Shown here: in pieces, positions 56,620 through 57,663 of the stretch | Numbering within the stretch: the first letter of the stretch is position 1 | Layout: each line of letters begins with the position of its first letter | Virus genome (UHGV): UHGV-1376660 | DNA: 64,000 bases | Reading direction: 5' to 3' (one strand) | From: a virus | The notes under the pieces: generated by a model | The model's database searches: none | The model's input: the letters and a program-made list of their open reading frames with translations, nothing else | Told to the model about the DNA's origin: nothing | Translations under genes and position numbers: made by a program

Positions 56620-57030
56620 TCACGGATTGGTCAGTGCTTGAAATGCAGCTGCATATGCCGCGATGTCTGCCATGATTTTTGGATCTTTCGCATACTGATG
56701 TGCATTGTTAGGGAAGATTGCTAATAGGCTATACACATCTTGGAAGTGTGCATGTTGGCTGTACACAAGAGCGCGGTCACTTGTACAGTTGAATCTATTT
56801 CGGCTGCTGGTTCGCTCTTGCTTAGTAAACAAGAGATGAACGTGATAAACGCGGGAGGAAACAATGGCACCCGGAGCCGTATATGGACCATCTTTCCCAA
56901 ATACGGCTGGGTACATGCCTTGTTTAAGCGAAGTGAAATCGTCGAGTAGAGTAATCTTTAGTTCAGGCTTTATATCAAAGGTCGGCTGCAGAAATTGGGC
57001 GTAACTAGCACTGTTCCATGTGACCTTCAT
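56620..57030 (-). CDS. YafO-family toxin-like protein (136 aa)
   Basis: FGKDGPYTAP, SRVYHVHLLF, RALVYSQHAHFQDVYSLLAIF and KIMADIAAYAAAF parallel E. coli YafO, from memory. Confidence 0.55.
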   Translation of the reverse strand: MKVTWNSASYAQFLQPTFDIKPELKITLLDDFTSLKQGMYPAVFGKDGPYTAPGAIVSSRVYHVHLLFTKQERTSSRNRFNCTSDRALVYSQHAHFQDVYSLLAIFPNNAHQYAKDPKIMADIAAYAAAFQALTNP

Positions 57031-57039
57031 CGATCAACC

Positions 57040-57663
57040 TTAATGGAATGAGAAGCAAGCGAAGACGTCCTCGTCGATGAGGCCTGTCTGGGATTCAATG
57101 ACGTCTGCGTCGTTAAAACACTGATTCAAAATCAATAGCAGATCAGAGATGGCTAAACGATACTCGGTTACAGAATCGCTCAGACGTTTCAAGTACGGGT
57201 GAGGTTGCTCAGAGTCACGAATTAACTTGTTAACGAATCCCTCCAAACCACGAATGGTCAGATCAACGTTTTTTAATTCTTCGTAACGGCTTTCACCGAA
57301 ACAGGAGCGAATTTTTTCTGCTTTCCATCCAGAGATGGCATGAGCCAGACGAACGTGTTTCGCCGTCAGTTCCGCTAACTTGTTTTCGATCTCTGCCAGT
57401 TGTGTCGCATCACTGTTTTCTTGAACGGGTATTCCTGCTGATTTCACATAGATTTGTTCTTTAAACCCAGTGTATTTCGCAGTACGCTTCACCGTGCCAC
57501 GGAAACGTAGATAGGCAAACGGCTCAACAAATGCACGCCCAGACTTAGCTTTAGTCTTTGCATTTGAAAAGCGCGAAGCGCTAGAGGTCACAGTAGCAAG
57601 AGCATTGCTAATGACACTCATATCTTCTAGGCAATTTTCTAAACGCATAAAACCTCTTAACAA
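57040..57663 (-). CDS. hypothetical protein (about 200 aa) directly upstream of the YafO-like gene; candidate cognate partner
   Basis: 9 bp intergenic gap; no recognisable antitoxin fold. Confidence 0.45.
   Translation of the reverse strand: MLRGFMRLENCLEDMSVISNALATVTSSASRFSNAKTKAKSGRAFVEPFAYLRFRGTVKRTAKYTGFKEQIYVKSAGIPVQENSDATQLAEIENKLAELTAKHVRLAHAISGWKAEKIRSCFGESRYEELKNVDLTIRGLEGFVNKLIRDSEQPHPYLKRLSDSVTEYRLAISDLLLILNQCFNDADVIESQTGLIDEDVFACFSFH

Follow-up and report, generated by a model that had tools for sequence, protein, structure and literature searches.

A YafO-family toxin gene and its long upstream partner form a putative type II toxin–antitoxin cassette in a phage-plasmid cargo slot

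Which protein restrains a YafO-family toxin at a locus that has no YafN? The question is raised by a pair of genes in the UHGV virus genome UHGV-1376660, of which a stretch of 64,000 nucleotides, referred to here as the window, was analysed. By its sequence the window belongs to an SSU5/pHCM2/pMT1-like phage-plasmid. Between the genes of a tyrosine recombinase (integrase) and of the glutaredoxin GrxA, a 136-residue YafO-family protein is encoded directly downstream of a 202-residue protein; both genes lie on the minus strand and 9 bp separate the two open reading frames (ORFs; Table 1). No YafN-like sequence was found anywhere in the 64-kb window. The features described below make it probable that the pair is an autonomous, mobile type II toxin–antitoxin (TA) cassette in the integrase-grxA slot, consisting of a promoter, a previously undescribed 202-residue antitoxin and a translationally coupled 136-residue endoribonuclease toxin of the YafO family.

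The identity of the toxin was examined by comparison with protein family models. Residues 36–131 aligned with positions 5–100 of the 101-position Pfam model YafO_toxin (PF13957) with a score of 78.5 bits and an E value of 4.6e-22, the gathering threshold being 25. Comparison with E. coli K-12 YafO using BLASTP gave 36% identity over 107 residues (E 1e-13), in agreement with the homology to YafO proposed in the initial annotation. Residues F32, G45, D47, H65, L88 and Y90 are invariant in 13 diverse members that include both E. coli YafO and the window toxin. The toxin motifs FGKD, HVHL and TSDRALVY conform to the family forms FG[RK]D, HxHL and TS[DN]xxL[VI]Y, and the K-12 and window toxins have FG(R/K)D, HxHL and TS(D/N)..LVY in common. 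The score against the NCBIfam YafO equivalog PRK09885 was 56.3 bits and did not reach the cut-off of 153. Judged by these comparisons, the toxin is a member of the YafO family and not an orthologue of K-12 YafO. Sequence and profile searches of the PDB with the toxin gave no relative. The family, listed as PF_YafO, has been placed among the RelE/ParE toxins of the BECR fold (PMC11980606) and is without a solved structure (PMC7180214), and the ribosome dependence of YafO is debated (PMC7180214, PMC11980606).

The upstream protein is of a different kind from the K-12 antitoxin. YafN is a 97-residue protein of the Phd/YefM type, whereas the window partner has 202 residues, is predicted to be all-helical and is unrelated to it: no BLASTP alignment between the two was obtained at E ≤ 100, and there was no similarity to Phd/YefM (PF02604). 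Pfam, NCBIfam and PADLOC gave no match above noise, and sequence and profile searches of the PDB returned only chance coiled-coil matches. The initial annotation had described the partner as lacking any recognisable antitoxin signature, and this was confirmed, as neither a helix-turn-helix (HTH), ribbon-helix-helix or AbrB domain nor a Phd domain was detected. The protein is 100% identical to one from Citrobacter europaeus and belongs to PHROG 13546, annotated as 'unknown function'. Its family is very small, with 27 clusters at 90% identity and 11 representatives at 50% identity, the latter being all that was found when 1.84 billion representative proteins were searched exhaustively with a profile. 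The alignment and an AlphaFold2 (AF2) model revealed a conserved N-terminal helix (residues 3–25), a variable and disordered linker some 50 residues long (approximately 26–77) and three long helices (79–178), followed by a conserved C-terminal tail that ends in FxxFSFH. The predicted local distance difference test (pLDDT) of this model was 58 overall and 70–83 in the helical core.

The association of the two genes extends well beyond the window. Wherever the contig continues, a PF13957 gene is found 8–11 bp 3' of the partner gene, as in L010 (partner 25–30% identical), L012, L013 and, on the chromosome of Erwinia, L008 (compared loci are given by their L numbers); at L013 a toxin-like N-terminal fragment of 35 residues takes the place of the full PF13957 gene. 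Partner relatives followed by YafO include P0073 (approximately 25–30% identical), P0068 and P0070, and are found on plasmids, on the Erwinia chromosome and in metagenomes. On the chromosome of Erwinia sp. JUb26 (L008) the pair stands alone between housekeeping genes. In PLSDB the partner was detected in 317 plasmids and the cognate toxin, at 60% identity or more, in 313. Identities to the window partner and toxin fall together, being 89–91% and 96–97% in Citrobacter, 66–67% and 77% in Klebsiella, 60–61% and 72% in Erwinia, 36% and 46% at L012, and 31% and 41% at L010, respectively. The two genes are strictly linked, diverge together and move as one unit. The initial annotation had placed both genes in the same operon, and this comparative evidence ties partner and toxin strongly into one module.

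Relatives also contain alleles in which one gene is damaged. On at least 23 contigs (e.g. L031–L033, Klebsiella phage-plasmids, positions 874–1803) a cut-down toxin of 100 residues lies beside an intact partner of 205 residues, which is the decay pattern expected of a TA pair, the toxin there being presumably dead. The converse, a broken partner gene next to an intact toxin gene, is rarer. A seemingly divergent partner lacking a toxin in K. variicola p_AC125 (L014) was rejected as an exception, as the assembly is error-ridden and both genes are frameshifted. Truncations and frameshifts in either gene, and the absence of the pair from pHCM2 and pMT1, would also be found if the locus were an inert relic, a decaying or silenced TA system that has no present function. 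Such a relic is nevertheless very improbable, given that both window ORFs are intact and have ribosome-binding sites and a candidate promoter, that the toxin keeps its catalytic-motif residues and that the pair is retained in more than 300 plasmids. The ratio of nonsynonymous to synonymous substitution rates was 0.03 for the toxin gene and 0.15 for the partner gene, and both are under purifying selection.

The arrangement of expression signals resembles that of a type II TA locus, being bicistronic with the putative antitoxin first, a tight gene junction, a terminator upstream and an inferred candidate promoter. Antitoxin-first order and tight spacing are also features of E. coli K-12 yafN-yafO. 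The partner more likely starts at ATG 57648 than at TTG 57663, the start from which the ORF was first called, because AAGAGG-TTTT precedes the ATG and because every homologue opens with MRLEN or MHLEN; in relatives the same start was assigned by the Prokaryotic Genome Annotation Pipeline. The intrinsic terminator after grxA sets the cassette apart from the grxA operon. The candidate sigma-70 promoter, which was read by eye, has 8 of 12 matches to consensus, is below the threshold of the promoter scan and was not flagged by it; an imperfect inverted repeat that overlaps its -10 hexamer could be an operator. A TTGTCG-17-TA(C/A)ACT block is also present 5' of the partner gene at the Erwinia locus L008 and on the metagenome contig L013, and the occurrence of this promoter-like block at all three sites suggests that the cassette brings its own expression signals. 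At the gene junction the overlap between the partner stop codon and the toxin Shine-Dalgarno sequence implies translational coupling. The same overlap (TAAGG or TGAGG), with a gap of 8–11 nt, was found in the window, at Erwinia L008 and in the metagenome loci L010, L012 and L013.

The partners of other YafO subfamilies were compared at about 20 hand-picked loci, a sample and not a census; a profile search of genome contigs with the toxin alignment gave only 2 loci. The sample (L005, L015–L019, L020–L024, phage HK639, Pseudomonas phage YMC11/02/R656 and phage PhiR40_1) covered plasmids of Klebsiella, E. coli, Enterobacter and Pseudomonas, a prophage, a chromosomal site by exbBD, and phages. In each of these subfamilies an unannotated protein of 165–190 residues is encoded directly upstream of the toxin, with a gap of 8–16 bp or an overlap of 10 bp. 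These upstream proteins gave no Pfam or NCBIfam match and are listed as unknown in PHROGs. The partner, called atypical in the initial annotation, is so in comparison with E. coli yafN, but not elsewhere: an uncharacterised helical protein of 162–205 residues was present upstream at every mobile or non-K-12 YafO locus sampled.

BLAST separated these partners into three clades and a Pseudomonas singleton. The proteins of PHROG 8416/22162, HK639_17 and PhiR40_1 resemble the window partner in lying upstream of YafO, in length (165–190 residues), in their helical plan, in the sequence RGLEG and in a C-terminal FH, while their pairwise identity to it is at noise level. In the window clade (PHROG 13546) the disordered linker is longer and the N-terminal helix less hydrophobic than in these proteins. 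Alignment of enriched profiles using hhalign related the window clade to the extended L015/HK639 clade with 89.8% probability (P 1.8e-6) over 144 collinear columns, and the L005/L016 clade to the same extended clade with 94.9% probability (P 4.2e-8). Scores this high were not obtained with any of 40 block-shuffled controls, and a reversed control did not come close either. Compared directly using hhalign, the window and L005/L016 clades gave no significant match, so that their link is transitive. The clades have in common an N-terminal hydrophobic or amphipathic helix, RGLEG, a last helix of the form R.A..L..I.Q and a C-terminal F-H, and they appear to join into one divergent superfamily.

The position of YafN can be considered in the light of this comparison. 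The toxin most similar to E. coli YafO (42%) is that of L010, which has a long helical partner; this suggests that YafN may be the exception, swapped in among YafO partners, rather than the rule. The Escherichia phage PhiR40_1 (L030, PV340560.1) encodes at 222–761 a 179-residue protein of the HK639_17/PHROG 8416 clade 5' of YafO, which its depositor labelled 'YafM antitoxin'; no publication behind this label was found, nor was any paper found on the partner family or on YafO in SSU5-like elements. The toxin family is known, and the putative antitoxin superfamily would be new, with no prior description. A broader proposal is put forward tentatively, as a possibility that is rather less likely than not being the case: the helical proteins of 160–205 residues may constitute a single unnamed antitoxin superfamily that is the general and perhaps ancestral partner of YafO, YafN being a secondary swap. 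Its neutralising structure would be new, with a conserved terminal helix, an aromatic-His C-terminus, a disordered degron-like linker and no DNA-binding domain. The superfamily may in addition provide the switch by which a new abortive-infection system, carried in prophage moron slots, senses phages.

Several results weigh against an antitoxin role for the partner or give it no structural support. Structure prediction for both proteins, suggested in the initial annotation, gave the helical core of the partner described above; the AF2 model of the toxin, built from a shallow alignment of 23 close homologues, had a pLDDT of 44.6 and is too weak for a check of the BECR/RelE-like fold. Foldseek searches of the PDB and BFVD with the partner model matched only generic helical or three-helix bundles, none at E ≤ 1e-3. 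No recognisable DNA-binding domain was seen in the partner using Pfam, NCBIfam or AF2, and classical autoregulation is therefore unsupported. DNA binding is not universal among type II antitoxins. Partners of other clades have hydrophobic, signal-peptide-like N-termini, e.g. MKDSITKIAMVVALALSSLSHGSYA and MSTKALSALIVTAMAVVSDYSAA (L005 3078–3602; L016, L017, L019), which is odd for a cytoplasmic antitoxin. No partner segment reaches transmembrane level, the highest 19-residue Kyte-Doolittle mean being below 1.7, and for the window clade a signal peptide was rejected, as the N-terminus is acidic and polar and below transmembrane-level hydrophobicity. Finally, two natural alleles combine a disrupted partner with a seemingly intact toxin. 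In E. coli CP059990.1 (L025, 2501–3526) indels of -2 and -1, 40 nt apart, introduce a premature TAA in the partner, and in Klebsiella RDAV01000003 (L027, 2400–3451) a frameshift in the linker detaches the N-terminal helix. These alleles are at odds with a strictly essential antitoxin, unless they reflect sequencing errors, a toxin silenced by polarity or fragments that are still functional.

The broken-partner alleles, the hydrophobic N-termini of related clades, the lack of a DNA-binding or known antitoxin domain and a length unusual for an antitoxin would all be accommodated if the upstream protein were an accessory factor, such as an adaptor, an activator, a targeting protein or a membrane-associated protein, and the RNase were either not toxic by itself or inhibited from elsewhere. 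This explanation is considered unlikely. Gene order, the 8–11 bp stop/Shine-Dalgarno-overlap spacing, co-occurrence and co-divergence are the signature of an antitoxin and its toxin, hydrophobicity remains below transmembrane level with an acidic, polar N-terminus in the window clade, it is common for a lineage to keep an intact partner next to a truncated toxin, and the window contains no other antitoxin candidate. An antitoxin role for the partner is preferred because of the antitoxin-first order, the implied translational coupling, the strict co-occurrence, the co-divergence and the mobility of the pair as a unit, and because truncated toxins sit beside intact partners and the window has no YafN-like gene.

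The location of the cassette was compared among related elements. The nearest relatives in PLSDB are IncFIB plasmids of approximately 108–111 kb from Citrobacter and Enterobacter, with 93% identity over a 3.1-kb query around the pair. The integrase-grxA interval contains the caf1 F1-capsule operon in pMT1, an unrelated 163-residue ORF on the opposite strand in pHCM2, another YafO pair in Enterobacter relatives, and a window-type pair with a colicin-E1 immunity gene in Klebsiella relatives. The interval is thus a true variable slot, as the initial annotation had supposed in calling it a cargo hotspot; in K-12, by comparison, yafN-yafO lies in the SOS dinB operon. The AT-rich patch claimed for the same region is real but mild, with a G+C fraction of 0.41–0.47 over 56200–57800 and 0.49–0.56 on both sides. 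The backbone DNA of five elements, including pMT1, pHCM2 and the Enterobacter and Klebsiella relatives, is conserved between the start of the integrase gene and a perfect palindrome and diverges right after the latter. The palindrome is, on this alignment, the integrase-side border of the variable slot and forms part of the host backbone rather than of the cassette; it may serve as a site for a recombinase or a regulator and set the point of cargo insertion. In some Klebsiella relatives an AbiH-family gene lies a few hundred bases past grxA (L027 200–1114; L014 267–698), which hints that the region gathers defence genes.

If the partner is an antitoxin, a mechanism can be proposed. The helical partner would bind and neutralise the toxin, probably through its most conserved parts, namely the last helix and the C-terminal aromatic tail ending in F-H, to which the N-terminal helix may be added. 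The partner may owe a sensitivity to proteases to its long disordered linker, which evolves fast. Loss of the element, or a halt in partner synthesis brought about by the host or by phage, would let the partner decay, and the freed YafO-type RNase would cut mRNA and arrest growth. In this way the plasmid-prophage would be stabilised or, alternatively, an infection aborted. A parallel for the former is phd-doc of phage-plasmid P1, the model of an addiction module on a plasmid prophage (PMC7969092). In both, two genes with the known or putative antitoxin first are carried on a plasmid-maintained phage; Doc, however, is a Fic-type kinase and not an RNase, the antitoxins are unrelated, and stabilisation is only putative for the window pair.

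The second outcome corresponds to an explanation that shares the TA mechanism and differs in the role of the pair, which would serve mainly in phage defence by abortive infection. The partner would then be both inhibitor and sensor, and its removal by a phage product or by infection-induced shut-off would release the RNase. YafO pairs occupy moron or defence positions elsewhere, lying between tape-measure and minor-tail genes in HK639 and a prophage, by ea22/exo in PhiR40_1 and at the genome end in a Pseudomonas phage, and the integrase-grxA slot is a cargo hotspot. In addition, pHCM2 and pMT1 are stably kept without the pair, which is therefore not required for maintenance. Taken with the AbiH neighbour, these positions and the pair-less elements put an abortive-infection role on a par with addiction. 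Against defence as the main role, PADLOC-DB v2 contains no model of the pair, the sole match, that of the toxin to PDC-M55B (E 0.01, 13.7 bits), being at noise level, and the pair is also found alone on chromosomes. A mainly defensive function is a serious possibility that falls short of being the expected one.

The coordinates of the cassette and of neighbouring features are collected in Table 1.

Table 1. Features of the cassette and its surroundings, in window coordinates.
Feature	Coordinates	Strand	Description
Toxin gene, YafO family	56620..57030	-	136 aa, putative mRNA endoribonuclease
Partner gene, candidate antitoxin	57040..57648	-	202 aa, from ATG 57648
Upstream ORF as first called	57040..57663	-	207 aa, from TTG start
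Gene junction	57031..57042	-	Partner stop TAA overlaps toxin Shine-Dalgarno sequence (TAAGG), 9 nt before toxin ATG
Candidate sigma-70 promoter of cassette	57682..57710	-	TTGTCG, 17 nt spacer, TACACT; read by eye, inferred
Intrinsic terminator 3' of grxA	57718..57737	-	8-bp stem, 6 G-C pairs, ACGGCTCC-TTTT-GGGGCCGT, then TTATTATTTG
Tyrosine recombinase (integrase)	55340..56446	-	Flanks cassette
GrxA glutaredoxin (grxA)	57744..57992	-	Flanks cassette
Perfect palindrome	56544..56576	.	16+16 nt (33 bp), AATGATTCCATACCTA-t-TAGGTATGGAATCATT; arms 100% complementary; upstream of integrase gene
Resolvase-type HTH fragment	59481..59702		In low-GC stretch
Autotransporter	60070..63324		1084 aa; Pfam Autotransporter beta-domain 141 bits, AC_1, PATR

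Two RNA family matches were obtained in this part of the window. The sok antitoxin RNA (RF01794) matched 56434–56568 on the plus strand with 27.6 bits (E 0.0025), under half of the gathering score of 59, and a type I hok/sok system was rejected, as the sole small ORF there (56495..56623, 42 residues) is not Hok-like. The Yersinia small RNA Ysr251 (RF02855) gave a sub-threshold match at 58588–58782 on the plus strand, antisense in phoH, with 61 bits against a gathering score of 100 (E 1.9e-14), which is consistent with a pMT1-like backbone. The phoH gene itself (58584–59418, minus strand) is seemingly frameshifted: ORFs of 236 residues (58708..59418) and 80 residues (58584..58826) overlap where relatives have a single phoH of 257 residues, and the split reflects a pseudogene or else an error in sequencing. 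Adjoining phoH, a stretch of low G+C (0.26–0.45) at 59400–63400 gave no extended match in PLSDB, the best covering 10% of the query with a segment of pHCM2 backbone. The SSU5-like relatives L004–L006 have different genes beside phoH.

YafO is among the least understood of the RelE/ParE-type toxins. In a study of Klebsiella plasmids a yafO-like gene was regarded as an orphan: 'no complete TA system' was recognised, and the gene was 'computationally predicted only' (PMC8151138). If the family described here is indeed the constant partner of such toxins, hundreds of phage-plasmids of Klebsiella, Enterobacter, Citrobacter, E. coli and Salmonella, together with several temperate phages, would hold a full module, for TA or for defence, that is overlooked by annotation pipelines. 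Such a finding would be unsurprising in principle, because toxins and antitoxins mix and match. It would complete hundreds of 'orphan' YafO annotations and add a testable antitoxin family without a classical DNA-binding domain, and it would provide a concrete pair for studies of phage-plasmid stabilisation or phage exclusion.

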